DNA from: Candidatus Tayloriibacteriota bacterium
GTDB lineage: Bacteria > Patescibacteriota > Minisyncoccia > Phycocordibacterales > PALSA-1337
Direction of reading: 5' to 3'
Length of the DNA stretch: 64,000 bases
Assembly (NCBI GenBank): GCA_037129895.1
Contig: JBAXUB010000004.1
Coordinates: 60-64,059 of the forward strand
Shown: positions 15,191 to 35,254 of the stretch, one piece after another
Position numbering within the stretch: position 1 is the first letter of the stretch
Layout of the letters: each line of letters opens with the position of its first letter
The notes under the pieces: generated by a model
Told to the model about the DNA's origin: nothing
The model's input: the letters and a program-made list of their open reading frames with translations, nothing else
Database searches by the model: none
Position numbers and translations under genes: made by a program

Positions 15191-15229
15191 GGCTCATGAG
15201 TCCACAAGGGCTTATTTTATTCTATTTTT

Positions 15230-15580
15230 ATGTCACGATCACTTAAAAAAGGCCCATACGTCGAAGAGAGATTGCTACGCAAGATCTTGGGTAAAAAGCC
15301 TGCAACAGCTGGTACTATAAAGACATGGGCACGCCGCTCTCAAATCTCACCAGAAATGGTTGGCTTTACTTTTGGTGTACACAATGGCAAGGCACATATT
15401 GATGTATTTGTAACCGAGGATATGGTAGGACACCGCCTCGGTGAATTTTCGCCTACACGTAAGTTCGTACGCCATGGAGGTAAGATGCAAAAGGAGCTCG
15501 AAATGAAAGCCAAGGAAGCTGAGATGACAGCCGCCAAGTCTGCTAAGGAAGCCGCTACTGCCGTAGTTGCCAAAAAATAA
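15230..15580 (+). CDS. rpsS: 30S ribosomal protein S19 (K/A-rich C-terminal extension)
   Basis: SLKKGPY...[13 protein letters not shown] motifs. Confidence 0.9.
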
Positions 15581-15589
15581 TACACTGCC

Positions 15590-16003
15590 ATGATCACCGC
15601 CTCATTAAAGAATTACAGAATAGCACCACGTAAAGTCCGTCTAGTTGCAGACATGATACGAGGCAAGAGTGTTATCCAAGCTGAAAATATCTTGGTTGGT
15701 GCAGTCAAGAAAGCAACAAACCCACTCGGCGATCTATTGGCGTCAGCAGTAGCCAATGCATCTCATAATTTCAAGATTGAGAAAGATGCACTTTTCGTAA
15801 AGGAGATCCGTGTTGATCAGGGATATGTTTTGAAGCGCAGCCAACCTATGGCACGAGGTTCAGCTTTTCCTATAAAGAAGAGAACGAGTCATGTCACATT
15901 GACACTCGCTCCTATAGAAGCAAAGGTAAAGAAGCAAGCAGGAAAGAACAAGAAGCAAGGAGAAGAGAGCAAGGCAAAAGCAGCAAAGGTTGCAAAGAAA
16001 TAA
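15590..16003 (+). CDS. rplV: 50S ribosomal protein L22 (K-rich C-terminal extension)
   Basis: L22 fold signature. Expected position in the cluster. Confidence 0.85.
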   Translation: MITASLKNYRIAPRKVRLVADMIRGKSVIQAENILVGAVKKATNPLGDLLASAVANASHNFKIEKDALFVKEIRVDQGYVLKRSQPMARGSAFPIKKRTSHVTLTLAPIEAKVKKQAGKNKKQGEESKAKAAKVAKK

Positions 16004-16016
16004 TAAATTTACCAAA

Positions 16017-16694
16017 ATGTCACACACCGTACATCCATATTCACATAGACTAGGAATCATACGCGACTGGAAGAGCCGATGGTTTTCTTCTGATAAGCTA
16101 TATCGAACATCATTGAAAGGGGACCTCATCATTCGAGAATTCCTACAGAAAGAATTGCGTGCGAACTACGTTGGTGGTTTGGATATAGAGCGCAATCAGA
16201 AAGTTCTACGCGTTATAGTGAAGACTTCTCGCCCAGGTATGCTCATCGGCAAGTCTGGTGATGGAGTCGTCAAACTTCGCGAGAAAATATTGAAGCTATT
16301 ACGCAAAAACAAGGTTGAGCTAAAGAGTGTTGAACTCAAGCTCGACATAGAAGAGATCCGCAGTCCAGAATCGAATGCCGCTATAGCAGCTATGATGGTT
16401 GCAGAGTCACTAGAGAAGCGTCTACCATTCCGACGTGTTATGAAGCAGACAATCGAGAAGGTTATGGCCAATAGAGATGTAAAGGGTATCCGTATCCGTC
16501 TCGGAGGTCGTCTAGGTGGTGCGGAGATCGCACGCTCAGAAGAGCTCAAGAAAGGTCAAGTTCCACTTCAGACATTGCGTGCGGATATCGACTTTGCTCG
16601 TGAGAAGGCACACATGACTTATGGAGACATAGGTATCAAGGTTTGGATATATAAGGGTGAGATATTCAAGAAGGACCAAGTCGTAGCCAAGTAA
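16017..16694 (+). CDS. rpsC: 30S ribosomal protein S3
   Basis: VHPYSHRLGIIRDWKSRWF N-terminus, KH domain. Start at the internal Met. Confidence 0.9.
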   Translation: MSHTVHPYSHRLGIIRDWKSRWFSSDKLYRTSLKGDLIIREFLQKELRANYVGGLDIERNQKVLRVIVKTSRPGMLIGKSGDGVVKLREKILKLLRKNKVELKSVELKLDIEEIRSPESNAAIAAMMVAESLEKRLPFRRVMKQTIEKVMANRDVKGIRIRLGGRLGGAEIARSEELKKGQVPLQTLRADIDFAREKAHMTYGDIGIKVWIYKGEIFKKDQVVAK

Positions 16695-16730
16695 TTTCCA
16701 TTTTAACTTTTCAATTTTCATCAAACTACC

Positions 16731-17156
16731 ATGTTATTTCCTAAAAAAGTAAAACATCGCAAGTGGTTCACAATGCGTACTCATCCTGACAAGGAAATGT
16801 CGCACGCTGATACACGTGGAGTAAAATTGGCTTTCGGTTCTTTTGGATTGAAGGCTATGAAATATTCTCGTATCACATCTAACCAGATCGAAGCTGCTCG
16901 TAAGGTCATGGCACGCTATGCTACAAAGTCTGGAAAAGTTTGGATCAGAATTTTCCCGGATCATCCTTTTACACAGAAACCTGCAGAAGTGAAAATGGGA
17001 AAAGGAAAAGGTGATCCAGTTGGCTTTATCGCCGAGGTGAAGCCAGGTCGCATCATGTTCGAGATCGACGGAGTAGATGCAGTCGTTGCTGCAGAGGCAC
17101 TTCGTAAGGCGGGAACAAAGTTGCCAGTCAAGACAAAAGTAGTCTCGAGAATGTAA
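16731..17156 (+). CDS. rplP: 50S ribosomal protein L16
   Basis: MLFPKKVKHRK N-terminus and L16 core. Confidence 0.9.
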   Translation: MLFPKKVKHRKWFTMRTHPDKEMSHADTRGVKLAFGSFGLKAMKYSRITSNQIEAARKVMARYATKSGKVWIRIFPDHPFTQKPAEVKMGKGKGDPVGFIAEVKPGRIMFEIDGVDAVVAAEALRKAGTKLPVKTKVVSRM

Positions 17157-17171
17157 TCAATACCAAATACC

Positions 17172-17378
17172 ATGAAAATGAAAGAAATCGTAAATAAGAA
17201 TAATTCAGACCTGAATCGTCTCATCACCGAGAAGAGAGAGGCTTTGAGAGCATTCAGATTTGGTTCTGCTGGCTCAAAGACAAAGAACGTCAAGGAAGGC
17301 CGAGGTATCAGGAAGGACATCGCACGCATAATGACGGAGCTAGCAAATGTAAAAGTAAAAATGGAAAATGGAAAATGA
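17172..17378 (+). CDS. rpmC: 50S ribosomal protein L29
   Basis: Small helical protein with LRAFRF motif. Expected position. Confidence 0.8.
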   Translation: MKMKEIVNKNNSDLNRLITEKREALRAFRFGSAGSKTKNVKEGRGIRKDIARIMTELANVKVKMENGK

Positions 17379-17467
17379 TGGACTGGAATTGTATTTTCCA
17401 TTTTAATATTTCAATTTTACATTAACTATAGACAAACACAGATAAATCAAGTAATATCAAACCCCAC

Positions 17468-17725
17468 ATGACAACAATCAAAACAACTGAAAATACACCA
17501 AAACGCCAGACATTTTCCGGTGTTGTTGTATCTGACAAGATGAAGGATACTACCGTAGTTGTCGTAGAGAGATACATCAAGCATGCAAAGTATCACAAGT
17601 TTTCAACAAAGAGGACAAAGATCTTGGCTCATGACCCAGGTAATACAAAGAAGATAGGAGACAAGGCCACGGTTGAAGCATGCAGACCAATATCCAAGAG
17701 AAAGGCATTCAAGATAATCGCATAA
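17468..17725 (+). CDS. rpsQ: 30S ribosomal protein S17
   Basis: GVVVSDKM..TVVV OB-fold signature. Confidence 0.9.
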   Translation: MTTIKTTENTPKRQTFSGVVVSDKMKDTTVVVVERYIKHAKYHKFSTKRTKILAHDPGNTKKIGDKATVEACRPISKRKAFKIIA

Positions 17726-17729
17726 TACC

Positions 17730-18101
17730 ATGATACAACCAAGAACGATCGTAAATATAGCAGACAATTCCGGAGCAAAGATCGGACGCATCTTCAAGGT
17801 ACTTGGTGCTACGAGAAAGCGCTATGCAGAGATCGGTGAGGTTGTCGTTCTATCAGTTCAGAAAGCAGAGCCTCGCAAGGCGATCAAGAAGAAAGACGTT
17901 TTGCATGCCGTAGTTGTCCGTCAAGTCAAACCTACACGACGTAAGGATGGTTCATATATACGTTTTGATGAGAATGCAGTCGTTATCATCGAAAAGGACA
18001 AGAAAGAACCAATCGCAGGACGTATATTCGGTCCTATACCTCGTGAAGTCGCCGAGGCAGGCTTCAAGACGATCGCTTCAAAGGCAGCTGAAATCGTATA
18101 A
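17730..18101 (+). CDS. rplN: 50S ribosomal protein L14
   Basis: MIQPRTIVNIADNSGAK N-terminus. Confidence 0.95.
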   Translation: MIQPRTIVNIADNSGAKIGRIFKVLGATRKRYAEIGEVVVLSVQKAEPRKAIKKKDVLHAVVVRQVKPTRRKDGSYIRFDENAVVIIEKDKKEPIAGRIFGPIPREVAEAGFKTIASKAAEIV

Positions 18102-18151
18102 TATTGTAGCGAAATTTTCCATTTTAACTTTTAAATTTTCCACTTACTACC

Positions 18152-18370
18152 ATGCATATCAAAAAAGGAGACACAGTCAAAATACTTTCAGGCGACGACA
18201 AGGGTAAAACCGGCAAAGTTGTAAAGGCTTTTCCTGCAACGAACAAGATCATTGTCGAGAAGGTGAATACTGTAAAGAAGCATGAGCGAGCTCGCAAAGA
18301 AGGCCAGAAAGGTCAGACAGTCGAAGTCGCTATGCCATTCGATGCTTCAAAGGCAGTAAAGACTGCATAA
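18152..18370 (+). CDS. rplX: 50S ribosomal protein L24 (short)
   Basis: IKKGDTVKILSGDDKGKTGKV KOW motif. Confidence 0.85.
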   Translation: MHIKKGDTVKILSGDDKGKTGKVVKAFPATNKIIVEKVNTVKKHERARKEGQKGQTVEVAMPFDASKAVKTA

Positions 18371-18406
18371 TTTTCCATTTTAACTTTTAAATTTAACATC
18401 AATACC

Positions 18407-18964
18407 ATGGCTTACAAATCCGTATACGAATTAAATAAAGATTCATTCAAGACATTGAAGGAACCATTGGGTCTCAAGAATCCAATGCAGACACCTCGCC
18501 TAGTCAAGGTAGTCATTTCTAGTGGTTTCGGTTCTGTGAAGGATAAAAAGAAGATCGAGATCATGGCAGACAGACTGGCTCGTATCACTGGCCAGAAGCC
18601 TGCTGTTCGTGTCACAAAGAAAGCTATAGCAACATTCAAGACTCGTGTTGGTGACCCTATCGGTTATCAGATCACACTTCGTGGTAAAAGGATGTGTGAA
18701 TTCTTGGATAGACTCATACACATTTCATTACCTCGAACAAAGGACTTCCGCGGCCTAGCCCGAACATCAGTTGATGCGATGGGGAACTACACGATCGGAG
18801 TGAAGGAACATACTATCTTCGCTGAGACTTCAGATGAAGACCTCAAGGATGTATTTGGTTTCGCTATCACTATCGTGACGACTTCGGATAACAAGAAATC
18901 GACATTGGCGTTTCTAGAATACTTGGGCATGCCTCTAAAGAAGGAAGGGGAGATAAAGAAATAG
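18407..18964 (+). CDS. rplE: 50S ribosomal protein L5
   Basis: PRLVKVVISSGFG motif and L5 core. Confidence 0.9.
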   Translation: MAYKSVYELNKDSFKTLKEPLGLKNPMQTPRLVKVVISSGFGSVKDKKKIEIMADRLARITGQKPAVRVTKKAIATFKTRVGDPIGYQITLRGKRMCEFLDRLIHISLPRTKDFRGLARTSVDAMGNYTIGVKEHTIFAETSDEDLKDVFGFAITIVTTSDNKKSTLAFLEYLGMPLKKEGEIKK

Positions 18965-19010
18965 GTTTTGTAGGCTCTAAAAGTGAATATATATTGAGAA
19001 AACTAGGCCC

Positions 19011-19039
19011 TTGACAGCCTAGTTCTCGTATGCTATACT
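19011..19039 (+). promoter_or_regulatory. candidate sigma70 promoter (TTGACA-17-TATACT) upstream of the DGR target gene
   Basis: Near-consensus -35 and -10 with 17-nt spacer. Preceded by an 8-bp hairpin aactaggc/gcctagtt. Confidence 0.5.
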
Positions 19040-19093
19040 TGTAATAGGTTCCTCATCCGGCGAAACATAATAAACCTCAAAAAAAGGAATAGA

Positions 19094-19285
19094 ATGAATC
19101 GCAGGAAAAACCGAGTGGATCACGCAATTGACAAGATGGAGTCGCTTCAGTACTTGTACTTCGCGGCTTGGGGTATAGTGCTCATAGGTGCGGTAAGAGC
19201 AGTCTTATACGCCTTCGGCATGAAACTCACCCAGTGTTGGGTGGATGCGCCGCTACGGTGGCTTGTCCATTTCATGGGTTTCTGA
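19094..19285 (+). CDS. small hypothetical membrane protein
   Basis: ORF with one hydrophobic helix. Low support. Confidence 0.25.
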   Translation: MNRRKNRVDHAIDKMESLQYLYFAAWGIVLIGAVRAVLYAFGMKLTQCWVDAPLRWLVHFMGF

Positions 19286-19388
19286 TTAATAACGTGATTC
19301 ATAAAAGACTTGCTCAAAAGGCAGGTCTTTTTCTATACGTCATGATATATTATTTTCTAAACTATTCAGATTATGTTAATATATTGAT

Positions 19389-21641
19389 GTGGAAAGAATC
19401 CCAGAAGAACCAAATTTTCATGAAATATCTGAAAAAAGGAAGGAACTCCGAGGGGCTATTTCTGAACTTGGTGATAAGGGACCTATTTTTGAAAAGCACT
19501 ATAAAAAACCACTAGCCGAGGCGGATGAGGAGGCGAGCAAATTCAAAATAGAAGATTTTGGTGGTATTAGTGGTGCCAAGAAAGTTCTCAAAAAACAAAA
19601 ATCCAAATACGAAGAAGATTTTTCTGAAGATAGGGCTCATATTGATTATGAAACTATTTTGAAGGTAGCGCCAGAAGTGGGCGAAGTGCAAAAGATAACA
19701 GAAGAGATTGCCGATCTTAAGGATTTTAGGATGCGTCGAATGTTAGAGCTTTTAAGCCCGCAAACTTCACTTTCAGCTAAAACGAGAAACGAAGCTGTGC
19801 TTAAAACTGTAAAAGAAGAAATCAGAGAAAACGAAGAAAAATTAGAAGAGGCTGACTCGTTGGTTTTACGCCAGGCAGAGCTTATCGAATACAAAGAAAA
19901 TTTGGCCAAGAGTGGTCATATTTGCATCACACCTAGTGTAGAAAAAGATCTGGAGGCGATAGGCGACAGAATGCTTACTGGCAAGCCGATGTTTCTACAT
20001 GGTCCTACAGGTACAGGAAAAACTTCTCTAGCCAGATTCGCTGCTACTCATTTTACTGGCAATGACCCGGAAATGGTTTTTTGTAATCCACAGACTAAGG
20101 AATCAAATGTCTGGGGGAAGACCGGTATTAAGCCAGCGGGAGGCGGAGCGATAGAAACTGTGGAGATTTATGGCCCGCTCGCCAAAGCAATGATAGACGG
20201 CAAGACCGTGATTTTTGATGAATTTACCGCTTTGCCAAAAGAGCAAATGGTTTTCATTAAAGGTGTTTTTAATGCCAAGGTGGGGGATAGAATAAATATT
20301 GTTGGCAATGGCATCGTCGAAATTGCTCCCGGTTTCCAAATGATTTTTACCGCCAACTTGAAATCTGAGAAAAATCCCGAGAGGCAGGATTTACCGCCAG
20401 AAATTGCCCGAGAATTTGAACAAAATAACCTAGAGGTCAAATATACACCCCAAGGTGAAGCTTACGACATTATGCTTTCTAGGCTTCTGAATCGAGACGG
20501 TTCTATCGATATGTCTTTTTATGATTTGAATACCACTCTGCCGAATCTTTGTAAAGTGATGACAGAAATCCAGGAATCGTATACCAACGAGACTGATAAA
20601 GAGGTGGCGAGAAGAGCAGGGGCAATGGATGCTTCCGGTAAGGTTTATTCCTTGAAAAAATTTGTGATGACACAGGGTTCAGTGGAAGCAATTTTGTCTT
20701 CATATTTGATAGAAAAACAGACGGGCAGGAAGGAGAGAAGTTTCGCAGAATTTTTGGATGAAAGATTCATGACAGCTCTGACTTTCAAAGAATACCCCAA
20801 AGAAGATAGAATCTTGGTGGCTAAGATTTTAGCGTCCAAAGGATTTTTGTTGACATTAAATGTCAAAGATTTGGATTTACCGGAAGATATTTTTCAGTTG
20901 AATACCATCAAAGCAATGCGTGGGGAAGATGCCGTAGAAGAACTCCAAAAAGAGTCTGGTGCGGTTAAACATCTAACCTTGAAGGAGGTGGCGGAGCTCG
21001 ACCCGTTCCATAAAAGGCCAGAATTATTGAAAAAACAAGCAGAAGCACTTTTGGGAGATGAAAAGAGCGAAAAAGACCCATTTTTAAAAAGCTTGAATAA
21101 AAAAATGGAGAAAATTTTTGGTAAGGAGAAACCAGTCAATATAATTGATCTATTGATCGCCCACGAACCTTTCCTCAGAGAAACTTTTGGTAAATGGTAC
21201 AGTGGTGATCAAAAGAAGATCGATATTCCTCAAAGACCATCTCTTGTCGACCCGCAATCGTTAGACTTTTCCTCCCTCAAATCCGATATTGACCCTTCAA
21301 AATTCGGTGAATACACCCTAAACCCCGAATGTCTCGGCCTAGACTTCAAAACTGCCAAAATCAAGGTCCTAGATATCCAAAAAGAAATCAAAACTAACAA
21401 ACTAACTGATATAGCCTCCATTGGTAAATACATTATTGACACCTACAGCAAAGACTATATCATCCCAGATATCTCCTTTTGGCAGTGGATGATTGAAAAA
21501 GGTGCCAATGCTCCAACTGAACTTCTGGATGGCAACTATCACTTTTGTTTCGGCTCTATCCTCCGCCGCTCGGGTGGCGATGCTGAGGTGCCTTATGCGA
21601 ATTGGCTTGGCTCTGAGTTCAGTCGGGATGCCCGCAGGTGA
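19389..21641 (+). CDS. AAA+ ATPase (MoxR/AAA_5-like) with C-terminal DGR variable-region domain; DGR target protein 1
   Basis: Walker A GPTGTGKTSLARF and Walker B VIFDEF. N-terminal coiled coil. The last ~130 nt match the TR with adenine-specific mismatches. Confidence 0.7.
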   Translation: MERIPEEPNFHEISEKRKELRGAISELGDKGPIFEKHYKKPLAEADEEASKFKIEDFGGISGAKKVLKKQKSKYEEDFSEDRAHIDYETILKVAPEVGEVQKITEEIADLKDFRMRRMLELLSPQTSLSAKTRNEAVLKTVKEEIRENEEKLEEADSLVLRQAELIEYKENLAKSGHICITPSVEKDLEAIGDRMLTGKPMFLHGPTGTGKTSLARFAATHFTGNDPEMVFCNPQTKESNVWGKTGIKPAGGGAIETVEIYGPLAKAMIDGKTVIFDEFTALPKEQMVFIKGVFNAKVGDRINIVGNGIVEIAPGFQMIFTANLKSEKNPERQDLPPEIAREFEQNNLEVKYTPQGEAYDIMLSRLLNRDGSIDMSFYDLNTTLPNLCKVMTEIQESYTNETDKEVARRAGAMDASGKVYSLKKFVMTQGSVEAILSSYLIEKQTGRKERSFAEFLDERFMTALTFKEYPKEDRILVAKILASKGFLLTLNVKDLDLPEDIFQLNTIKAMRGEDAVEELQKESGAVKHLTLKEVAELDPFHKRPELLKKQAEALLGDEKSEKDPFLKSLNKKMEKIFGKEKPVNIIDLLIAHEPFLRETFGKWYSGDQKKIDIPQRPSLVDPQSLDFSSLKSDIDPSKFGEYTLNPECLGLDFKTAKIKVLDIQKEIKTNKLTDIASIGKYIIDTYSKDYIIPDISFWQWMIEKGANAPTELLDGNYHFCFGSILRRSGGDAEVPYANWLGSEFSRDARR

Positions 21642-21681
21642 GACAATGACTGGCGCTCCAGCTATCGGGTTGCTCTCCTCG
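21549..21681 (+). other. DGR variable region VR1 (extends ~40 nt past the TGA stop at 21639..21641)
   Basis: 16 mismatches against the TR, 15 of them at TR adenines. The 3-prime ~35 nt (initiation of mutagenic homing, IMH-like) are identical to the TR. Confidence 0.8.
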
Positions 21682-21770
21682 AGAGGTAGTGTTTGTATTG
21701 ACCTTGGCCTTTTGACTTTTGTCTTGTCCCCATCGTCTGTTCTCTTTGATTCTTTTGGATTTTGCAATCC

Positions 21771-21800
21771 TCCCGAATGTAATCATTCGGGAGGATTTGT
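21771..21800 (+). other. perfect 13-bp hairpin atcctcccgaatg-taat-cattcgggaggat downstream of VR1
   Basis: Seen directly. Lies exactly at the boundary where the VR1 and VR2 duplicated modules diverge. Confidence 0.5.
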
Positions 21801-22035
21801 CCTATGTTATACTTGTCAGGCATATACAATAATGCGTCCGGGTACGCTTTGACGCGCTATATGCCGAGACCAACAGAACAGAGTCAAGTGCGGTTATCCA
21901 AACTTGAGCGTGTCTGCTGGTGGTGTAATAATTAAACACACTCTGTGAAGCCCACCAAGACATTATGATGTCAAAGACAAAAACCATCCGTGCTTAGGTG
22001 TCATCACGTGCGGGATTGGATATAGATGATGGGCT

Positions 22036-22165
22036 TCGCTAATCCTCCGCAACTCGGATGGCGATGCTAAGGTGCCTTATGCGAATTGGAATGGCACTGA
22101 GTTCAATCGGAATGCCAACAGGTTAGACAATGACTGGAACTCCAACTATCGAGTTGCTCTCCTCG
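22036..22165 (+). other. DGR template repeat (TR)
   Basis: Adenine-rich counterpart of VR1/VR2. AAC/AAT codons lie in register with the target reading frame. Confidence 0.8.
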
Positions 22166-22195
22166 TTACTGTGTTGATTTTCCACCAATTTGGAA

Positions 22196-22567
22196 TTATT
22201 TAAATTGGTGGTTTTGTTTTTTTATTTGGTTTTTCCAGCCGTATAACATTTTGCCGACTTCCTCAACTTTTTGCGACAGGCTAAAAAAAGTATTTTGATC
22301 TAGTCCTTTAAGCTCAAATAAAGCATAGAACATAAACTTAAGCGTATCATTCTTGGTAATGGCGGACATAATCAGTTCTGTGCGAAGGTGAGGTTCGCTA
22401 TAATATGCCGAAGCGATTGATTCTATCATCGTTGCTAGTATCGTCTCGATTCGTATACCCATGGAATAGCGAAGCGATTTGGGAATATGTTTCGTTTTGA
22501 GTTGCCAATCTACATAAAGAGCCAATACTTTTAAGCTTATGCTGGGCAGTTTGCTTGTCGTAGTCAT
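22196..22567 (-). CDS. avd: four-helix-bundle protein, DGR accessory Avd-like (23S rRNA intervening-sequence protein family)
   Basis: ~120-aa helical protein between TR and RT. Family resemblance to TIGR02436. Opposite strand to the RT. Confidence 0.5.
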   Translation of the reverse strand: MTTTSKLPSISLKVLALYVDWQLKTKHIPKSLRYSMGIRIETILATMIESIASAYYSEPHLRTELIMSAITKNDTLKFMFYALFELKGLDQNTFFSLSQKVEEVGKMLYGWKNQIKKQNHQFK

Positions 22568-22575
22568 TTTGCCTA

Positions 22576-23586
22576 TTGTATATGAAAAAAAATAAAAATA
22601 ACATACCCACCTTCGATGAAATTATAACCCTACCCTCGCTGTTTTCAGCATGGCGAGAGTTTGTTTGTGGCAAGAAATCAAAAGGTGATGTGGCGATATT
22701 TGCTATAAATTTATATTCTAATTTGCGAGCTCTAGGCACTGATTTGATGTATGACAGGTATCAGCATGGCGGATACGAATATTTTAAAGTCAAAGATCCG
22801 AAAGAACGCGACATTCATAAGGCGAGTGTGAGAGATCGGGTTGTTCATCATCTTTTATATTCTGCACTCTATGATCATTTTGACCATTATTTTATTTATG
22901 ATTCGTATTCTTGTCGGAATGGCAAAGGCACACACCGTGCAGTGGAGCGGTTTGCTAGATTTGTGTATTCTGTGAGCCAGAGAAATACGCAACCAGTTTG
23001 GATTCTTAAATGTGATATCCGAAAATGCTTTGCTTCAGTTGATCATAGTATCTTACTCGCTATATTAAAACGGCATATCTGTTGTCCGCATTTATCTGGT
23101 ATCGTTAGATCGGTAATTAGAAGCTTTTCAAGTGGCTTGGAAGGAAAAGGAATTCCGTTAGGTAATCTTACTAGCCAGTTATTTATTAATGTTTATCTTC
23201 ACGAATTAGACACATATATTAAAAGAACGCTCGGAGTAAAATATTATATCCGTTATGCTGATGATTTTGTAATTATGGCCAATAGCCGCTTCCTACTGGA
23301 CAATCAGCTCATCCTTATCCGCCATTTTTTGGAAACTAAACTCAAAATGCAAATTCATCCCGATAAAATATTCATTAAAACACTGGCGACAGGATTAGGT
23401 TTCCTCGGCTGGATAAAGTTTTTTGATCACTTGATTCCACGGGCTTCTACTAGACGGCGGATGTTTAAAACAATTAAAAATAGTCCGCATCGGGAAGTAA
23501 CAATACAGTCATATCTCGGAATGCTATCGCACGGGAATACGCACAAACTCCGGGAAATAATCCGGCAAATGCTTGATGGAAAATAG
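22576..23586 (+). CDS. DGR reverse transcriptase
   Basis: Motifs GIPLGNLTSQLFINVYL (IGxxxSQ hallmark of DGR RTs) and RYADDFVI (YxDD). 336 aa. Confidence 0.85.
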   Translation: MYMKKNKNNIPTFDEIITLPSLFSAWREFVCGKKSKGDVAIFAINLYSNLRALGTDLMYDRYQHGGYEYFKVKDPKERDIHKASVRDRVVHHLLYSALYDHFDHYFIYDSYSCRNGKGTHRAVERFARFVYSVSQRNTQPVWILKCDIRKCFASVDHSILLAILKRHICCPHLSGIVRSVIRSFSSGLEGKGIPLGNLTSQLFINVYLHELDTYIKRTLGVKYYIRYADDFVIMANSRFLLDNQLILIRHFLETKLKMQIHPDKIFIKTLATGLGFLGWIKFFDHLIPRASTRRRMFKTIKNSPHREVTIQSYLGMLSHGNTHKLREIIRQMLDGK

Positions 23587-23618
23587 AAAAAGCAGAAGAA
23601 ATTTGGTAGAATGACAAT

Positions 23619-25508
23619 ATGGAACGACTAGATATTATAGAAACAAAAACAGGAAAAAAGCCAGAAGAAATTGCTGAGGATAGCGAGCATGCTGAGGCGG
23701 TGGCATTGGTGGAAAAGCATAGGGATTTTTTTGAGCATTATGCCAAAGGTAAGATAAAAATTGAGCCGGCACCTAAAAGCATACCCACTTTTGCTTTTAA
23801 TTTGGAAAAGAACACCATTTATGTAAATTCAATGTTCTATAAAAAGCTGGGTTTGTCTGAAGAAAAAACAGTCTTTGCAACTCTACATGAGATAGAACAT
23901 TTTATGGAAAAATTGCAGATTCTCTCTGAAGATGGCGGTGAGAAATCTTTTGATAAGTATTTAAAGAGAATCAAAGCTTCTAAAGCCTATTCTCTGATGG
24001 ATAATTGCGTGGCGGATATTCGCGAGAATCGGGCAGTGGTTGGAAAGACCAATAAAGGAATGGGTGAGCTGGAGGAAAAAACCTACAAAGAGGATCTGTT
24101 CGCGGAAACCGATTTTACCAAACAACCTAGGCATATCCAACTTAGTCAGGCACTTTTGAGAGAGGCTAGAGTACCGGATGAAAAGTGCGATGTATCGTCG
24201 GAAGTGAGGCAAGCGCTTGATGAGGTGGGAAAAGTGAAAGGTTTGATGGAAATAATGACGAACCCAGAAACGCCAATGTCCATGCGTATGAAATTGCAAG
24301 ATAAATATATCTGGCCGAAAGTGGAATCACTTTTGGAAAAAGATATGGAGGATAAGAAAAAACAAAAAGAGCAAGAAAAAAAGGAAAAAGAAAAGGGAGA
24401 AGGGAATGATGGTCGAGAATCAGGTGAAGGTAAGGAAGGGCAAGAGGGTGATAAGGACGAAGAAACAGACCCGAATAAAACATTTGCAGACGAGTATGCC
24501 AGGGCGGAGGCGAAATTTCCCGAAGCTGTGCCGATAGAAGAGATAGAAAAAGCCTTGAAAGAATGGAAAGAAGCGCAAAAAGGTAAAGACAATAATGATA
24601 AAGCAGACGAGGACTATGCAAAGAAAATCGGCGTGGAGAAAGAAGATTTGCAGGACTACAGGAAAATAGTAGAAAATTTGGAAAAAACTGTGAATCCGGA
24701 AACGGATGTTGGTATATTAGACGAATTAAAAAATCTTTTTTCTAGAATTATTGCCAAACGAATAAAGGTTGCTCAAGTACCAAAGTATCCAGTAGAAGAA
24801 GGGGATGAATTGACCGATCCGGCGCAACTCGTGGCAGATGTAAAATCTGGCAATCTTCAACCGAAAGTCTGGGAAGATACAGAAATTATAGAAAAAAAGG
24901 GAAACAGATTTGGTGAAGTAGAAATCACCTTGGTTTGTGATCAGTCTGGTTCCATGGCGGGGCAGAAAGCGGAAGAGCAGAGAAAGTCTGCTGTTTTGGT
25001 AATGGAGGTATTGAAAGAGTTTGGGGAGCTGTGTGAAGCAGAAAAGATAAATATAGACAAACCGCTCGAAGTAAAGTCTGAGATTTACGGTTTCGGTGCT
25101 GGTGATGATGAAAAGCCAATGAAAAAGATGTCTGCGGAGCTTGGTGAAGCGGAAAGGATAGAAGTGCTGAAAAGACTTTATGATGTGCCAGGTGGAACGA
25201 CTGATTTCAATTGTTTGGAAGCAATAGATGGCAATTTGACTGAAAATATAAAAAATAAAATCAAGATTGGCGAGCTTAAAAAAATAGTGATTGTCTTTAC
25301 CGATGGTGGAAGTGATAATCCAGGGAGAGTGCAGGGTGTTTTAAAAAGCTTGAGAGATGGTGGAGTGATAGCGATCGGTGTGGGGATTACTAGCGAAGGA
25401 ACACCAGTCTTGTCTACTTATGCGCCGAATGCATTGGTGGTGGAAGATGTAAGTAAATTACCAATCGTTTTGGGTGAACTTTTAAAAGAACATTTGAAAG
25501 ATTTATAG
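23619..25508 (+). CDS. zincin-like (HEIEH) metallopeptidase motif + acidic low-complexity linker + C-terminal von Willebrand factor A domain protein
   Basis: HExxH in TVFATLHEIEHFM. MIDAS motif CDQSGSM and ...VFTDGGSD in the C-terminal region. Confidence 0.6.
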   Translation: MERLDIIETKTGKKPEEIAEDSEHAEAVALVEKHRDFFEHYAKGKIKIEPAPKSIPTFAFNLEKNTIYVNSMFYKKLGLSEEKTVFATLHEIEHFMEKLQILSEDGGEKSFDKYLKRIKASKAYSLMDNCVADIRENRAVVGKTNKGMGELEEKTYKEDLFAETDFTKQPRHIQLSQALLREARVPDEKCDVSSEVRQALDEVGKVKGLMEIMTNPETPMSMRMKLQDKYIWPKVESLLEKDMEDKKKQKEQEKKEKEKGEGNDGRESGEGKEGQEGDKDEETDPNKTFADEYARAEAKFPEAVPIEEIEKALKEWKEAQKGKDNNDKADEDYAKKIGVEKEDLQDYRKIVENLEKTVNPETDVGILDELKNLFSRIIAKRIKVAQVPKYPVEEGDELTDPAQLVADVKSGNLQPKVWEDTEIIEKKGNRFGEVEITLVCDQSGSMAGQKAEEQRKSAVLVMEVLKEFGELCEAEKINIDKPLEVKSEIYGFGAGDDEKPMKKMSAELGEAERIEVLKRLYDVPGGTTDFNCLEAIDGNLTENIKNKIKIGELKKIVIVFTDGGSDNPGRVQGVLKSLRDGGVIAIGVGITSEGTPVLSTYAPNALVVEDVSKLPIVLGELLKEHLKDL

Positions 25509-25528
25509 TTTAAGCCTATAATTGCAAT

Positions 25529-26344
25529 ATGAATTTTGAATCTATCGTAAACATGGCCAAGGGGTCAAAGAAAGAGGAAATAGTCAAAAAACCGGAAAAA
25601 TCCCAAGAGGAACTCCGAGGAGCTTTGGAGTCAAAATTAGAATCTTCGAAACCAGTCTTGCAAGAGGGAATCAAAGAATATGAGCAGGCTTTGAAAGATG
25701 ATACTTTCGAAGACCAAGATGGTGAGGCAGAAGGAGCTGGTGAGAAAAGGAAGGAAGCTATGCAAGCCAAGCTCAGCTCCATGTTTGACCGAGCGGAAAA
25801 AATGAGGAAGCAATTGGACAGTGGTGAAATTCTCGAGCAAATTCCTGAGGCCGATACTATCTTACGGGAACCTTTCCTCAGAGAAACTTTTGGTAAATGG
25901 TACAGTGGTGATCAAAAGAAGATCGATATTCCTCAAAGACCATCTCTTGTCGACCCGCAATCGTTAGACTTTTCCTCCCTCAAATCCGATATTGACCCTT
26001 CAAAATTCGGTGAATACACCCTAAACCCCGAATGTCTCGGCCTAGACTTCAAAACTGCCAAAATCAAGGTCCTAGATATCCAAAAAGAAATCAAAACTAA
26101 CAAACTAACTGATATAGCCTCCATTGGTAAATACATTATTGACACCTACAGCAAAGACTATATCATCCCAGATATCTCCTTTTGGCAGTGGATGATTGAA
26201 AAAGGTGCCAATGCTCCAACTGAACTTCTGGATGGCAACTATCACTTTTGTTTCGGCTCTATCCTCCGCCGCTCGGGTGGCGATGCTGAGGTGCCTTATG
26301 CGAATTGGCTTGGCTCTGAGTTCAGTCGGGATGCCCGCAGGTGA
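25529..26344 (+). CDS. DGR target protein 2 (short; unrelated acidic N-terminus fused to the same VR-bearing C-terminal domain)
   Basis: Last 159 aa identical to target 1. DNA 25868..26469 identical to 21165..21766. Confidence 0.65.
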   Translation: MNFESIVNMAKGSKKEEIVKKPEKSQEELRGALESKLESSKPVLQEGIKEYEQALKDDTFEDQDGEAEGAGEKRKEAMQAKLSSMFDRAEKMRKQLDSGEILEQIPEADTILREPFLRETFGKWYSGDQKKIDIPQRPSLVDPQSLDFSSLKSDIDPSKFGEYTLNPECLGLDFKTAKIKVLDIQKEIKTNKLTDIASIGKYIIDTYSKDYIIPDISFWQWMIEKGANAPTELLDGNYHFCFGSILRRSGGDAEVPYANWLGSEFSRDARR

Positions 26345-26384
26345 GACAATGACTGGCGCTCCAGCTATCGGGTTGCTCTCCTCG
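26252..26384 (+). other. DGR variable region VR2 (identical to VR1)
   Basis: Exact copy of VR1 including the TGA stop. Confidence 0.75.
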
Positions 26385-26496
26385 AGAGGTAGTGTTTGTA
26401 TTGACCTTGGCCTTTTGACTTTTGTCTTGTCCCCATCGTCTGTTCTCTTTGATTCTTTTGGATTTTGCATTATAGTTATCATGGAATTGTTCCAAA

Positions 26497-26583
26497 GTCG
26501 GAGTGGTGAAATTGGCAAACACGCAGCGTTCAGAACGCTGTGAGCTCACGCTCTTGGGGGTTCAAGTCCCCCCTCCGGCACCA
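26497..26583 (+). tRNA. tRNA-Leu (anticodon CAG), CCA encoded
   Basis: Manual fold: acceptor GUCGGAG/CUCCGGC, anticodon loop UUCAGAA, long variable arm, T-arm GGGGG-UUCAAGU-CCCCC. Close overall to E. coli tRNA-Leu(CAG). Confidence 0.85.
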
Positions 26584-26617
26584 AAATCAGCAGACCACTA
26601 AGCAAGCCAATAATTTG

Positions 26618-26727
26618 GCTTGCGGCGGGGGACTTGAAAAGGTCGAGTATATTTTCGAGCGGCTATGCCGTGAGAAAATACGAGACCTGTACCGAAGCTG
26701 TAAGCTTCAAGTCCCCCCTCCGGCACA
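26618..26727 (+). repeat. ~110-nt structured element (X-Y) whose last 22 nt exactly repeat the tRNA-Leu 3-prime end (T-loop to discriminator); followed by a T9 run
   Basis: ttcaagtcccccctccggcac occurs at 26563..26584 (tRNA) and 26706..26727. 5-prime gggggacttgaa pairs with 3-prime ttcaagtccccc. Two internal hairpins covary with the copy at 1..170. Confidence 0.55.
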
Positions 26728-26905
26728 TTTTTTTTTGCTATTTTCCTCATATTTTGCTAGTCTATATTCTACTGGTTTGAGGTATCAGCTCTGATCTATT
26801 CTCTCAGCAAAATATCTCCGATCTGTAAATGCGCGCGTAGCTGTCTTGGTAGGTCTAAGACATCGGGCGGGCAAATAATGTTTCGTTGATAAATAGAGTT
26901 TATAT

Positions 26906-26978
26906 GCGCGCGTAGCTCAGTTGGTAGAGCACGCCACTGATACTGGCGGGGTCCCAGGTTCGAATCCTGGCGCGCGCA
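26906..26978 (+). tRNA. tRNA-Ile (anticodon GAU)
   Basis: Cloverleaf: GCGCGCG acceptor, D-arm gctc/gagc, anticodon loop CUGAUAC, T-arm ccagg-ttcgaat-cctgg. Confidence 0.85.
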
Positions 26979-27087
26979 CCCGAGTAAATCCGCTTATGCG
27001 GATTTTTAGTTGAGGTTTTATGTATGAGAGCGGAATTTTCCATTATGTCAATATTGCTTTTTTCTCTTCAAATGAGAAAATTGGAGC

Positions 27088-27939
27088 ATGGAGAAAGAGA
27101 AAAAATATTTAGCAATATTTGAAGGTAAACAAATTCGCCGACACTGGGATGGTGGTTCGGAGAAGTGGTATTTTTCTGTAGTTGATGTTGTTGGTGCGTT
27201 ATCAGGTAGCGAGCGCCCAAGAAAATATTGGGATGATCTAAAGCGACGTCTTTTTGATGAAGGAAGTGAAGTGTCCGCAAAAATCGGACAGTTGAAAATG
27301 GTGGCCGAGGATGGTAAATTGCGTGACACTGACTGTGCTGAAACCGAGGTGATGCTCCGTATTGTCCAGTCGATCCCTTCTCCAAATGCTGAACCATTCA
27401 AACTCTGGCTTGCAAAGGTTGGTTATGAACGGCTTGAGGAGACTGCAGATCCTGAACTCGCCATATTACGTGCACTAAAAACATACCTGAGTAAAGGTTA
27501 TTCATTGAATTGGATAAACCAACGCTTGAAAAGCATTGAGATACGCAAGGAACTTACAGATGAATGGGAAAAGTGTGGCGTAAAAGAAGGGTTTGAGTTT
27601 GCTATACTGACAGACGAGATATCAAAGGCTTGGACAGGGATGACAACTAGAGAGTACAAAAGCTTAAAAAATTTAAAGAAAGAAAATCTACGAGACAATA
27701 TGACAAACCTCGAATTGGTACTAAATATGTTAGCAGAGACCGCTACAACGGAGATTTCCAAGAAGGAAGCACCAAGAGGATTTGAACCGAGCAGAAAAGT
27801 TGCAAAAGATGGTGGAAGTATTGCTGGCAATGCGAGAAAACAAATCGAGCAGAAAATTGGAAAATCTATTTTGACAAGTGACAATTTCGAGACATTTAAG
27901 AATAAGTCTCTTAAGGAAAAAGGCAGTCAATCTATTTAA
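27088..27939 (+). CDS. Bro-N domain protein, DinD-like (paralog of 1675..2520)
   Basis: Motif LAIFEGKQIRRHWDGGSEKWYFSVVDVVGAL. ~65% identical to the first copy throughout. Confidence 0.55.
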   Translation: MEKEKKYLAIFEGKQIRRHWDGGSEKWYFSVVDVVGALSGSERPRKYWDDLKRRLFDEGSEVSAKIGQLKMVAEDGKLRDTDCAETEVMLRIVQSIPSPNAEPFKLWLAKVGYERLEETADPELAILRALKTYLSKGYSLNWINQRLKSIEIRKELTDEWEKCGVKEGFEFAILTDEISKAWTGMTTREYKSLKNLKKENLRDNMTNLELVLNMLAETATTEISKKEAPRGFEPSRKVAKDGGSIAGNARKQIEQKIGKSILTSDNFETFKNKSLKEKGSQSI

Positions 27940-27957
27940 ATTTGATCACAAGCCATA

Positions 27958-28542
27958 ATGTCCCTATCATTCACCAAAGAAGCTTTAAAAAAGTTCAAAA
28001 CTCAAGGGTCACTTTTTCCGAGTACATCGGCGTTGGGTAAGATGATGATAAAGCCGATCGTTATGAAACCCGGCATGATAATAGTAGAGTTTGGTGCAGG
28101 CACAGGATCGATTACCAAGGAATTGATTCCCAGGTTGCGATATGGTGCGACATTTCTCGTTTTTGAAAATAACAAAGTGTTGGCGGAAAAGTTGCGTGAT
28201 GACTTAGTACCATATATAGAAGCCACGAAATCTCATAGTAAGGTCATTTTGATAGAAGATGATGCAGCGAACTTGAGAGCACATCTCGATAGACTCGGTC
28301 TACCTTTGGCAGATTATGTTATTTCTGGATTACCTATAGGGAATTTCAAGAGACACGAACGACAGAAAATATTCGATGCTATAAATGAAGGAATGAAAGA
28401 GGATGGTATCTATGTTCAATTTCAATACCTATTGGCAAGCTTCCTGCATGTTCGTCGAGTATTCGACGCCAAGGTGATAGGCTATGAAGTTAGGAATGTA
28501 CCACCGGCATTCGTCTATGTTTGCAAGAAGAAAGCAGAGTAA
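27958..28542 (+). CDS. small class I SAM-dependent methyltransferase
   Basis: Gly-rich SAM loop IVEFGAGTGSITKEL. Acidic residue at the end of beta2. Confidence 0.5.
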   Translation: MSLSFTKEALKKFKTQGSLFPSTSALGKMMIKPIVMKPGMIIVEFGAGTGSITKELIPRLRYGATFLVFENNKVLAEKLRDDLVPYIEATKSHSKVILIEDDAANLRAHLDRLGLPLADYVISGLPIGNFKRHERQKIFDAINEGMKEDGIYVQFQYLLASFLHVRRVFDAKVIGYEVRNVPPAFVYVCKKKAE

Positions 28543-28618
28543 CCTAGGTACATTGTTACTGAACATTCGCTAGATTTGAATATTTTGAGAAAGGTCTAGT
28601 TTGGTGTAAAATTAGCCC

Positions 28619-29614
28619 ATGAATACAAATACATATATGAGTCCCAAGGACTTTTTTCTGCACCTGGGTGCAACCGTAGCCTTGTATGCAAGTGCTATCG
28701 CTATTATCAATCTGGCATTTGAGATAATGAATAGACTGCTGCCAGACACACTCTCCAATTATTGGAGTTCTAGTTCTATAGCATGGCCGATATCTATGCT
28801 AGTTGTCCTCGTCCCTATTCTATATACATTGGAAAACCTCATCAACCGAGATATCAGGAAGATTGCCGAGAAAAAAGATATCTGGATCAGGAGATGGAGG
28901 ATATATCTCACATTGTTTCTGTCAGGCGTCACTATCGCCGTTGATGTGATAACTCTGATCAATACATATTTAAATGGTGAGATATCGAGTAGGTTCATCT
29001 GGAAAGTTATCATCATTCTCATAATTTCTGCCGTCATATTTGCTTATTATATTTTGGCAAAAAATGTAGCCGGTGATCCGAGTGTTGAGTCGATAACAGG
29101 TGTAAAATCAAAAAAGCTTTGGCAGAGAATACTGGCAATAGTTGGAATAGTCGTTACTTTATCTGCGATCATCGCTGGCTTCATGATCGTCGGGTCTCCG
29201 AATACTCAAAGATCACTCCGTTTTGACAGTCAGAGAGTCAATGACCTCTCGAATATCCAGTGGCAGATCGTTACATATTGGCAGAGAGCAGGTAATATGC
29301 CAGATAGTCTATATGATCTCCGTGATCCGATCTCAAGTCTACAAATACCTCTAGATCCAGAGACAGGAAAACAATATGAATATGTTTCTATGAACAAGGA
29401 CCCATTGTCATTCGGCTTGTGTGCGACTTTCGATCTCGCTAGCAATTTCAAGAATAATGCTGTAAGCTCTCAAACTCAGCCGATAAAAGCTATGAATAAT
29501 GATGGGCTAGATTATGGCTGGGAACATCCAGCGGGATACTATTGTTTCGAAAAGAAGATCGATCCGAAACTTTACCCACGATCTGGTACAGTAGAAAAGC
29601 TATTTAATATTTAA
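28619..29614 (+). CDS. hypothetical integral membrane protein
   Basis: Several TM helices in the N-terminal half, soluble C-terminal domain. Confidence 0.4.
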   Translation: MNTNTYMSPKDFFLHLGATVALYASAIAIINLAFEIMNRLLPDTLSNYWSSSSIAWPISMLVVLVPILYTLENLINRDIRKIAEKKDIWIRRWRIYLTLFLSGVTIAVDVITLINTYLNGEISSRFIWKVIIILIISAVIFAYYILAKNVAGDPSVESITGVKSKKLWQRILAIVGIVVTLSAIIAGFMIVGSPNTQRSLRFDSQRVNDLSNIQWQIVTYWQRAGNMPDSLYDLRDPISSLQIPLDPETGKQYEYVSMNKDPLSFGLCATFDLASNFKNNAVSSQTQPIKAMNNDGLDYGWEHPAGYYCFEKKIDPKLYPRSGTVEKLFNI

Positions 29615-29633
29615 TATTCTTTTTATTATATTT

Positions 29634-31049: not shown

Positions 31050-31174
31050 GAATCAAACGGTTGACAAACGGTTCTGAAGGAGTATTATTACAGCATACCT
31101 TCTGTTGCTTCGGTGGCAGAACGCGAAATCGCAACCCTGTGTTGCGATTTCTGCATAAGGGAATATACATTGTA

Positions 31175-31825: not shown

Positions 31826-31836
31826 CAATAGAATGT

Positions 31837-32625: not shown

Positions 32626-32663
32626 AAAATTGAATAGTCAAAGATAGGGATTGAATCATAATT

Positions 32664-33113: not shown

Positions 33114-33120
33114 TATTCTG

Positions 33121-33438: not shown

Positions 33439-33467
33439 TATAACATATATGTTATATTGGTAATATT

Positions 33468-33734: not shown

Positions 33735-33782
33735 GGAATTCTCTTTGCAGGGATTGGTTTTTCGCTGTAAACTGTAGTTATC

Positions 33783-35102: not shown

Positions 35103-35121
35103 GTTAGGTATTTTGCTATCT

Positions 35122-35242: not shown

Positions 35243-35254
35243 AGAGATAAACAC

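Follow-up and report, generated by a model that had tools for sequence, protein, structure and literature searches.

The cassette at positions 19389-26471 of a 64,000-nucleotide (nt) stretch of DNA from Candidatus Tayloriibacteriota bacterium (assembly GCA_037129895.1, contig JBAXUB010000004.1, positions 60-64,059, plus strand; this whole stretch is called the window, and coordinates without a contig name refer to it) is very probably, in its identity as well as in its anatomy, a chromosomal diversity-generating retroelement (DGR) of the type known from candidate phyla radiation (CPR) bacteria, here in a genome of the Paceibacteria group (Patescibacteria). Most of the reverse transcriptases in CPR bacteria belong to DGRs. 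The cassette comprises five genes and a 124-nt repeat in three copies, in the order long target, structured leader and template repeat (TR), avd on the reverse strand, reverse transcriptase (RT), a zincin-like protein with a von Willebrand factor A (vWA) domain, and second target; the variable repeats VR1 and VR2 lie in the long and the second, short target gene, respectively. By its host group and by the order target-TR-reverse avd-RT the cassette is of the CPR type (architecture B3 of Wu et al., 2018; presumably clade 2 of Roux et al., 2021), and the B3 layout represents 90% of the CPR set of Wu et al. (2018; PMC5758913). The original prediction of a complete DGR with two targets, made from the DNA before the present analysis, is borne out, as the TR/VR pair, Avd, RT and two targets are all present. 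Statements on domains and families come from profile searches (Pfam, NCBIfam, and PADLOC), alignments of homologues and models, and all of them are computational. For its function, a role as a cytoplasmic module that recognises, remodels and cleaves other proteins is plausible by analogy, and we put it forward tentatively, as a possibility that falls well behind the identification of the element itself.

In a gapless alignment over 124 nt, TR differs from VR1 and VR2 at the same 16 positions, of which 15 are adenines in TR and one is a thymine. These are the counts given before, whereas the left ends formerly assigned to TR, VR1, and VR2 lay 6-9 nt further out and took in bases that are not homologous. 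Given 32 adenines in 124 nt, the probability of finding at least 15 of 16 differences at adenines is 1.8e-8. Of the TR adenines, 30 of 32 occupy codon positions 1 or 2, the frame contains AAC and AAT codons, and TR translated in the frame of the targets reads ILRNSDGDAKVPYANWNGTEFNRNANRLDNDWNSNYRVALL. At related loci the share of adenines among the TR/VR differences is similar, with 10/10, 17/21, 18/18, and 15/15. The lone non-adenine difference of the window is a T in TR (22124), which is a G in both VRs (21640 and 26343). The 13-nt 3' end of the repeats, GTTGCTCTCCTCG (21669-21681 in VR1), is the same in TR and in both VRs and, judged by its sequence, is a candidate for the core of the initiation of mutagenic homing site. 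A small palindrome at the end of the VR, CTCTCCTCGAGAG, had been flagged as terminator-like and is accounted for by the coding sequence for LLER.

Comparison of closely related strains shows adenine-specific rewriting, information flow from TR to VR and recent activity. Seven contigs from other metagenome samples (L006-L012) carry the same locus behind rplE and are more than 99.9% identical to the cassette of the window outside the VRs. With one of them, L009, about 7 kb outside the VRs show 5 mismatches, none of which falls into the 1011 nt of the RT gene, whereas VR1 shows 21 and VR2 24 mismatches. Among the relatives five distinct VR alleles exist, each with 20-24 changes from TR, of which 0-2 fall on sites other than adenine; of the 32 TR adenines, 31 are variable in one allele or more. 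VR positions thus do vary between strains at adenines, and the refuting outcome named in the original prediction (relatives with identical VR/TR differences) did not occur. In L009, VR1 and VR2 differ from each other between identical flanks (393 nt upstream and 85 nt downstream), which means that both targets have been rewritten independently. At position 15 of TR, the window has a G in TR and in both of its VRs, whereas the relatives have a T in their TRs and in all their VRs, a shared polymorphism that shows flow of information from TR to VR. By these sequence comparisons the DGR is genuine and recently active.

The features of the cassette are listed here with coordinates, strand and the evidence on which each is based.

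19389-21641, plus strand: long DGR target, 750 amino acids (aa), GTG start (open reading frame, ORF; AAA_5 match)
19989-20366, plus strand: AAA_5 ATPase core (MoxR/dynein-midasin clade), aa 201-326 of the long target (Pfam)
21165-21766, plus strand: 602-bp identical block, copy 1 (100% identity to copy 2)
21558-21681, plus strand: VR1, 124 nt (gapless homology to TR)
21639-21641, plus strand: premature in-frame TGA in VR1 (T to G at 21640)
21767-21796, plus strand: 12-bp perfect hairpin, TCCTCCCGAATG/CATTCGGGAGGA
21806-21814, plus strand: extended -10-like element, TGTTATACT (consensus match)
21884-22040, plus strand: structured 5' leader of the template RNA (RNAalifold and covariance model)
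22042-22165, plus strand: TR, 124 nt with 32 adenines
22182-22211, plus strand: 13-bp stem-loop, then a T run
22196-22567, minus strand: avd, 123 aa (PF22296 and NF033474 matches under their cut-offs)
22576-23586, plus strand: RT (RVT_1)
23619-25508, plus strand: HExxH/vWA partner protein, 629 aa (VWA match, HEIEH motif)
25529-26344, plus strand: short DGR target, 271 aa (ORF; variable domain)
25868-26469, plus strand: 602-bp identical block, copy 2 (100% identity to copy 1)
26261-26384, plus strand: VR2, 124 nt (gapless homology to TR)
26497-26583, plus strand: tRNA-Leu(CAG), directly after the cassette

The gaps of 32 nt between the RT and vWA genes and of 20 nt between the vWA gene and the short target fit one operon. 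The inventory of parts drawn up in the original prediction stands, although it omitted the stop codon in both VRs, the location of avd on the minus strand, the identity over 602 bp and the RNA leading into TR.

The Avd assignment is based on matches to bAvd (PF22296, E=5.8e-8) and to DivGenRetAVD (NF033474, E=3.9e-9) and on placement, as avd has the same position and orientation in 30 related loci; the gene had been recognised before. It is divergent from the RT gene, with the two start codons about 14 nt apart. The RT matches RVT_1 (E=1.6e-21) and carries the motifs LGNLTSQ and YADD; the latter had been read correctly, whereas the former had been given as IGNLTSQ. Its listed ORF comprises 336 aa from a TTG, and translation likely starts at the ATG at 22582, giving 334 aa as in the relatives. 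Among defence-system models (PADLOC and NCBIfam), none matches the targets or the vWA protein, and the only matches in the cassette are a generic RT and the sub-threshold Avd.

The single non-adenine difference creates a stop codon. Where TR has TTA (Leu), the exchange of T for G (21640 and 26343) leaves an in-frame TGA, and both target ORFs end inside their own VR (TGA at 21639-21641 and 26342-26344). Beyond the TGA, the frame of the long target runs on to a TAG at 21687-21689, which gives a natural length of 766 aa. The 16 codons left behind the stop (…DNDWRSSYRVALLER) include four of the adenine-site differences and two in-frame AAC codons of TR. In all seven strain-level relatives the TGA is absent, a T is found at the site, and the targets read through to 766 and 287 aa, compared with 750 and 271 aa in the window. 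The 750-aa target of the original prediction is therefore what the ORF of the window encodes, cut short by a stop inside the VR. A code that reads TGA as Gly or Trp, of the kind used by Gracilibacteria and SR1, was considered and ruled out. TGA ends 15 of 61 well-supported genes of the window, among them rpmC and several at overlapping ATGA junctions, and code 11 leaves the long ORFs unbroken; because TGA normally ends genes here, it is a premature stop in the targets and is not recoded.

VR1 and VR2 are identical to each other, TGA included, and the 602-bp block in which they lie takes in all of the variable domain with the VR and runs on for 85 nt past the VR. This identity reflects either gene conversion or assembly collapse. 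There is a substantial chance, if somewhat short of even, that the identical VRs and the double stop are an assembly artefact and that really only one copy, probably VR2, carries the allele. In both genes the VR is bracketed by the same 393 nt and 85 nt, and since these flanks are identical, short reads cannot phase the VR. Further, L010 has identical VRs, and the nearly identical L009 has two different ones. Contig L076 (MEGAHIT, k=141), which is independent and 99.98% identical to 26130-37937 of the window, has its first base exactly 141 nt ahead of 26270, the first adenine of VR2 that varies, at the branch point expected in a de Bruijn graph if another allele existed in the sample; in this contig the TGA allele adjoins tRNA-Leu, which ties the allele to the side of the second target. 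Other contigs begin in a comparable manner. In L011 the first variable site is found at position 128, which fits an assumed k=127, and position 1 of L077 corresponds to 26440 of the window, 30 nt inside the repeat, which fits an assumed k=31 at the right edge of the repeat. Breaks at k (or k-1) before a branch, as in L076, L011, and L077, are what heterogeneity of the VR within a sample together with the repeat would produce. An artefact is also suggested by 24 of 60 related contigs ending at most 1.5 kb from the end of the ATPase gene, and by L003 and L006, which join the long target straight to the sequence downstream of the second target. In the latter two (5881-8520 of L003 compared with L001, and 2341-2560 of L006 compared with the window) TR is absent together with the avd, RT, and vWA genes, as a consequence of either recombination between the identical 3' blocks, with deletion of what lies between them, or the route taken by the assembler across the repeat. 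Against an artefact speaks L028, a 376-kb contig from another species, which also contains an exactly identical block of 714 bp including the VR, so that real gene conversion between the two 3' ends is also plausible. The block of L028 (11753-12466 equals 16478-17191) belongs to a different class of variable domain, and homogenisation of target ends recurs there. Look-ups in other collections found none of the exact 750-aa, 271-aa, and RT products of the window, and metagenomes scanned for the TGA allele and, separately, for the TR type of the window likewise gave no match. At the first base after copy 1 of the block, 85 nt beyond VR1, begins the 12-bp hairpin (21767-21796), which could be a terminator of the long target or mark a recombination boundary; no clear counterpart is found after VR2 and copy 2 of the block.

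That the locus is instead a decaying, inactive DGR, with pseudogenes as targets and with identical VRs because no rewriting has occurred since their duplication, seems improbable. It would account for the TGA in both VRs and for VR1 being equal to VR2, and more than half of the candidate DGRs of Wu et al. (2018; PMC5758913) were discarded for premature stops or truncations. However, the RT, avd, and vWA genes are intact, as are TR and the leader RNA; jointly these show only 3 differences to L009, none of them in the RT, and L009 itself has intact targets and two unlike VRs. Moreover, the stop lies inside the rewritten tract, flanked by rewritten adenines, and TR keeps the T at this site, so that a single homing event would erase it; substitutions at sites other than adenine are frequent in CPR DGRs (Wu et al., 2018; PMC5758913).

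About 230 nt located 5' of TR, between VR1 and TR, are conserved across species and are predicted to form a structured leader of the template RNA. RNAalifold, applied to 18 loci (species), finds four helices. Helix 1 (21884-21888/21903-21907) is followed by a three-helix domain (21932-22040) consisting of helix 2 (21945-21956/22028-22039), helix 3 (21959-21963/21968-21972), and helix 4 (near 21985-21988/22012-22015), and the long helix of the leader ends 2 nt 5' of TR. In this alignment 94.9% of the cells are paired, compared with 39-49% when the partners are slid, and compensatory changes occur in 20 of 25 leader pairs, a result equalled by none of 500 shuffles. With 25 distinct leader sequences, the paired share of the cells is 94.3%, and covariation is seen in 16 of 20 pairs. 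Built on the three-helix domain, a covariance model gives 28 hits in 889 kb, all of them on the plus strand and directly 5' of a TR; these are the hit in the window (21932-22040, 69.4 bits), those in L001 (12562-12670), L004 (12621-12728), and L015 (12821-12928), and 24 more. Eight of the hits, at seven loci, are outside the set from which the model was built. The model has no hits in loci with the second class of variable domain described below, and an Rfam search over 18900-27100 recognised no known family except two tRNAs.

Upstream of the leader the element TGTTATACT is conserved in several species and, judged by its sequence, would be the promoter of the template RNA. Starting 16 nt after TR, and overlapping the 3' end of avd on the opposite strand, the 13-bp stem-loop (22182-22211) and its T run are kept in 18 loci; it is a candidate for an Avd-binding stem-loop, for the 3' end of the template RNA, or for both. 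Avd-binding stem-loops just downstream of TR were reported for 207 of 278 DGRs, in a survey that took 40 nt upstream of TR, and in the DGR of the Bordetella phage the essential RNA elements are mostly located 3' of TR (bioRxiv 10.1101/2023.10.23.563531). With the DGR of this phage, BPP-1 (mtd-avd-TR-brt), the present cassette shares adenine mutagenesis from TR to a C-terminal VR, Avd and RT, and a stem-loop directly after TR. Unlike in BPP-1, however, avd is located on the opposite strand between TR and RT, the long structured RNA lies 5' of TR and not in a 140-nt spacer 3' of it, and the targets are predicted cytoplasmic proteins, for whose variable domain the searches recovered no C-type lectin (CLec) fold, and not a tail fibre. 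We infer that in the architecture with reversed avd the elements recognised by the RT sit in the 5' leader, and the leader may be the element of the template RNA by which RT and Avd recognise it. In the proposed mechanism, a short plus-strand RNA would be made that consists of the folded leader (about 230 nt), TR (124 nt), and the 3' stem-loop. RT together with Avd would copy this template RNA to cDNA, placing random bases opposite the 32 adenines, and the cDNA would replace the VR at the 3' end of the two target genes.

In the long target, a charged helical region at the N-terminus precedes the AAA+ core, which is followed by a helical middle part and, at the C-terminus, by the variable domain of about 175 aa. 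The core matches AAA_5 (E=4.3e-11; 43.4 bits compared with a cut-off of 22) at aa 201-326, with an intact Walker A motif (GPTGTGKT, aa 205-212) and a Walker B motif (IFDEF, with DE at 277-278), the residues of which are invariant across 41 homologues, and the earlier assignment to the AAA_5/MoxR class is thus confirmed. The closest solved chain is NorQ (E=5e-4), the MoxR-class partner of the vWA protein NorD, and the region of the helix-2 insert (from strand 2 to Walker B) aligns to NorQ with high posterior probability at the level of sequence. Some family members give sub-threshold matches to bpMoxR (PF20030), the model of the ternary systems of Kaur et al. Homologues of the long target number 292 and are all from Patescibacteria (Taylorbacteria, Zambryskibacteria, Paceibacterota, and others) where the source names an organism. 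More than 100 of them are full length with 766-790 aa, including P0001 (766 aa, 99% identical) and the orthologues in L007, L009, and L010 (all 766 aa). The possibility that the ATPase and the variable domain belong to separate genes mis-joined in one ORF is ruled out, because the homologues are uniformly full length and the frame is single and uninterrupted; the two are parts of one gene, as had been proposed.

The description of this target as unusual does not hold. In CPR bacteria variable proteins fused to AAA ATPases are the commonest DGR targets, according to Paul et al. (2017) as far as that work is summarised by Dore et al. (2024; PMC10907252), and the latter suggest that the ATPase of such targets may transduce signals. 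Similarly, Wu et al. (2018; PMC5758913) described P-loop NTPase targets (category g1), and 'UVR4' targets that match the AAA motif of Midasin and whose fold was undecidable. The locus is a member of this known CPR class of DGRs with an AAA-fused target, with which it shares the host group, the gene order, an AAA or P-loop domain ahead of a C-terminal VR, multiple targets and occasional changes at sites other than adenine.

The partner protein consists of an N-terminal HExxH domain (HEIEH at aa 90-94, nt 23886-23900), a low-complexity linker rich in K and E, and a C-terminal vWA domain (E=1.3e-8) with a metal ion-dependent adhesion site (MIDAS) of the form DxSxS...T...D, DxSxS being found at aa 441-445 (nt 24939-24953). 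The vWA fold matches the MIDAS domain of Midasin and NorD. Across 43 partner sequences the HExxH motif is invariant, as are the MIDAS residues. A model of the protein (predicted local distance difference test, pLDDT, 70-90) shows three strands (47-69) and then a helix (81-103) bearing the HExxH motif; no third metal ligand was identified. An HExxH and vWA(MIDAS) protein as neighbour of the ATPase, noted from the start, is confirmed, and is conserved in 14 of 15 well-sampled loci.

The short target combines a conserved N-terminal helical hairpin with the same variable domain as the long target (AlphaFold2 pLDDT 87.6), in agreement with the earlier view of a second, short target (25529-26344, with VR2) that reuses the diversified domain. 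A motif (ELR...) thought to be common to the N-termini of both targets was rejected, as BLASTP gives E=0.18 and profile comparison aligns the variable domain alone. At E<=0.01, the short target matches no Pfam family and the partner matches VWA alone. For the variable domain there is no Pfam match in 43 members at E<=5 and no match among Protein Data Bank (PDB) profiles, and a Foldseek search of the PDB returns nothing at E<=0.001, the sole lectin-like matches being to rhodocetin at E of about 7. In the AlphaFold2 model the secondary structure runs beta-beta-alpha-alpha-beta-beta-beta-beta, and the VR occupies the last three strands. This modelled strand order is compatible with a CLec-like fold, and the C-type lectin fold was recovered by no search. 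None of the five proteins seems to contain a membrane segment, as none reaches 1.6 in a 19-residue Kyte-Doolittle scan.

A scan of one genome per species yielded 60 Patescibacteria loci; where lineages are recorded for related loci they are mostly Patescibacteria, for example Taylorbacteria, Zambryskibacteria, and Paceibacterota. In the fully sampled set of 15 species-level loci, whose flanks extend for no less than 3 kb upstream and 6 kb downstream, the RT is found in 13, Avd on the reverse strand in 12 and the HExxH/vWA protein in 14. In 12 loci the vWA gene is located downstream of the RT, and in 2 it lies immediately upstream of the ATPase gene, so that the pairing of ATPase and vWA protein holds in both gene orders. 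In a second class of ATPase and short target, encoded in the same cassette, the C-terminal variable domain is unrelated to the one described above and ends in …GVRPxRCFF (P0005, P0032, P0163, and P0168; L026, L028-L033, L054, and L072); this class has its own TR/VR pairs, with 18/18 and 15-16/17 differences at adenines.

For the function of this ensemble the following model, built by analogy, might be considered. A ring of the ATPase would display the variable domains as cytoplasmic ligand binders and would work with the vWA(MIDAS) partner in the manner of NorQ/NorD, RavA/ViaA, or Midasin; the HExxH domain of the partner would add a proteolytic output, and the module would most plausibly be aimed at changing non-self proteins. 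The conflict or surveillance function attributed to the cassette in the original prediction may likewise be entertained by analogy. Several points weigh against this model and against the identification as a functional DGR. Both targets are truncated in this copy and may have been non-functional at the moment of sampling. The avd match scores under both curated cut-offs (PF22296 and NF033474). The zincin assignment is derived from the invariant HExxH motif and a modelled sheet-then-helix arrangement, and profile searches matched no peptidase family to the HExxH domain of the partner. Finally, the functions of family members are so far predictions made by analogy. More speculative still, and on balance doubtful, is the wider proposal that the commonest class of CPR DGR targets might be the sensor arm of a cytoplasmic two-protein machine and not an adhesin, with the short target as decoy or regulator, that the whole might be a reduced CPR counterpart of MoxR-vWA conflict systems, and that RNA recognition might have moved 5' of TR.

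Alternatively, ATPase and vWA protein might form a housekeeping MoxR chaperone for maturation of ribosomes or metallo-enzymes, the substrate range of which is tuned by the DGR and whose role is reflected in its position in a ribosomal gene cluster. Known MoxR/vWA pairs, at least NorQ/NorD, RavA/ViaA, and Midasin as outlined in PMC7159879, are indeed maturation chaperones, the cassette lies behind rplE in this lineage, and ribosomal protein genes occur inside five CPR DGRs (Wu et al., 2018; PMC5758913). Nevertheless, we regard such a role as unlikely, given that the location is not conserved (L001 and L004 have the cassette elsewhere), that a hypervariable substrate-binding domain on a housekeeping chaperone is without precedent, and that NYN, PemK, and AbiEii genes are inserted in related cassettes. 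Least probable is the customary interpretation of CPR DGRs, in which the variable proteins are surface adhesins by which an episymbiotic CPR cell attaches to changing hosts, the ATPase being incidental. Reviews propose roles in host interaction for CPR DGR targets (PMC8632793), and DGR targets are generally binding proteins. However, nothing resembling a signal peptide or a transmembrane segment is present in the targets or the vWA protein, more than 100 homologues have the variable domain covalently joined to an AAA+ ATPase of cytoplasmic type, and CPR clade-2 targets typically have no recognisable transmembrane domain (Roux et al., 2021; PMC8144416).

To return to the model of a cytoplasmic recognising and remodelling module, among the closest known counterparts are the DGR-linked vWA-MoxR-VMAP ternary systems, in which a variable FGS domain is located on the vWA protein (Kaur et al., 2020; PMC7159879). 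Those of cyanobacteria, gammaproteobacteria, and Thiohalocapsa (PMC7159879, PMC10907252) have in common with the present cassette a MoxR ATPase, a vWA(MIDAS) domain, a peptidase domain and a DGR-diversified binding domain; also, some of their loci pair a long with a short target, and their components are predicted to be cytoplasmic. In contrast, the variable domain is here found on the ATPase and on the short protein and not on the vWA protein, which has no VR, and the putative peptidase is an HExxH domain on the vWA protein, whereas in the ternary systems it is a trypsin or caspase domain on the VMAP protein. No VMAP or adaptor (EAD and Trypco) families were found in the cassette, nor, among the matches listed, in relaxed scans (E<=5) of 43 homologues of the short target and 43 of the vWA protein. 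Lacking VMAP and carrying the variable domain on the ATPase, the locus departs from the ternary systems in two of their defining features. Furthermore, DGR-linked MoxR-vWA conflict systems are known from multicellular bacteria, whereas the host is here a reduced, non-multicellular CPR bacterium, and most CPR RTs fall in a different DGR clade (Dore et al., 2024; PMC10907252). When compared with the classical pairs NorQ/NorD, RavA/ViaA, CbbQ/CbbO, and Midasin, the ATPase has extensions of about 190 aa at the N-terminus and about 440 aa at the C-terminus, which include a hypervariable domain, the vWA protein bears an HExxH domain, and no metallo-enzyme client is encoded nearby. Roux et al. (2021; PMC8144416) ask whether CPR targets are genuine targets that are not membrane-bound. 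The accessible papers on CPR DGRs make no mention of an HExxH and vWA partner, a short paralogous target or a folded 5' leader; Paul et al. (2017) is outside this scope, and novelty is not claimed.

Upstream of the cassette lie rpsS, rplV, rpsC, rplP, rpmC, rpsQ, rplN, rplX, and rplE, with the rest of the spc operon absent from this place, and, in line with the earlier observation, the cassette follows rplE in the window and in L006-L012. More distant relatives have it elsewhere, in L001 between a sortase gene and prfB/ftsEX and in L004 between an epimerase gene and secDF. The identity to L009 is mosaic. It amounts to about 99% between 17724, where rplN starts, and about 26500, a stretch that includes the entire cassette, but to only 75-83% in the ribosomal-protein genes at 15220-17724 (compared segments: 17724-26727 of the window and 4107-13120 of L009), with tRNA-Leu at the right edge of the shared part. 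This pattern indicates either that diverged genomes have recently exchanged the part that runs from rplN through tRNA-Leu or that the contig is chimeric. Within the shared segment, divergence is greatest in the spacer of 424 nt that separates rplE from the long target, where 21 mismatches to L009 occur; this spacer contains an ORF of 63 aa with a hydrophobic stretch (19094-19285, plus strand), which is preceded by a strong promoter-like site (19011-19039, 11/12 matches).

Downstream of the cassette are found tRNA-Leu, tRNA-Ile, and genes for Bro-N, methyltransferase-like, DUF5671, pyruvate kinase, NYN, RadC, and Gp49 proteins. The Bro-N protein (27088-27939, plus strand) matches the candidate defence family PDC-S13 of PADLOC (E=5.6e-130), and a diverged paralogue with about 75% nucleotide identity is located at 1692-2458. 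The NYN, RadC, and Gp49-like genes are found at 31061-31825 and 33121-33438, and L076 has a helix-turn-helix gene right after Gp49. Toxin or defence-type genes (NYN, AbiEii, and PemK) also lie in or beside related cassettes (L001 at 14248-14919, 17193-17873, and 19069-19737; L004 at 15329-15721), and such neighbours give the locus an island-like context. A phage origin was rejected, since no relatives were found among viral contigs (IMG/VR).

As this locus and its about 60 species-level relatives show, the AAA-fused target comes with a tightly conserved vWA/HExxH partner and a short paralogous target, all of them proteins without membrane segments. This ensemble turns a vague 'variable protein' into a testable hypothesis, with ATPase, adaptor and peptidase as its parts, for the main class of CPR DGR targets. 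The leader, supported by covariation, gives a handle on how DGRs with reversed avd may recruit their template. The series of strains formed by the window and L006-L012 is a clean natural experiment on adenine-specific turnover and on flow from TR to VR in a nearly invariant background, and the stop codon within it shows a cost of sloppy reverse transcription as well as the self-repairing nature of a templated variable region.

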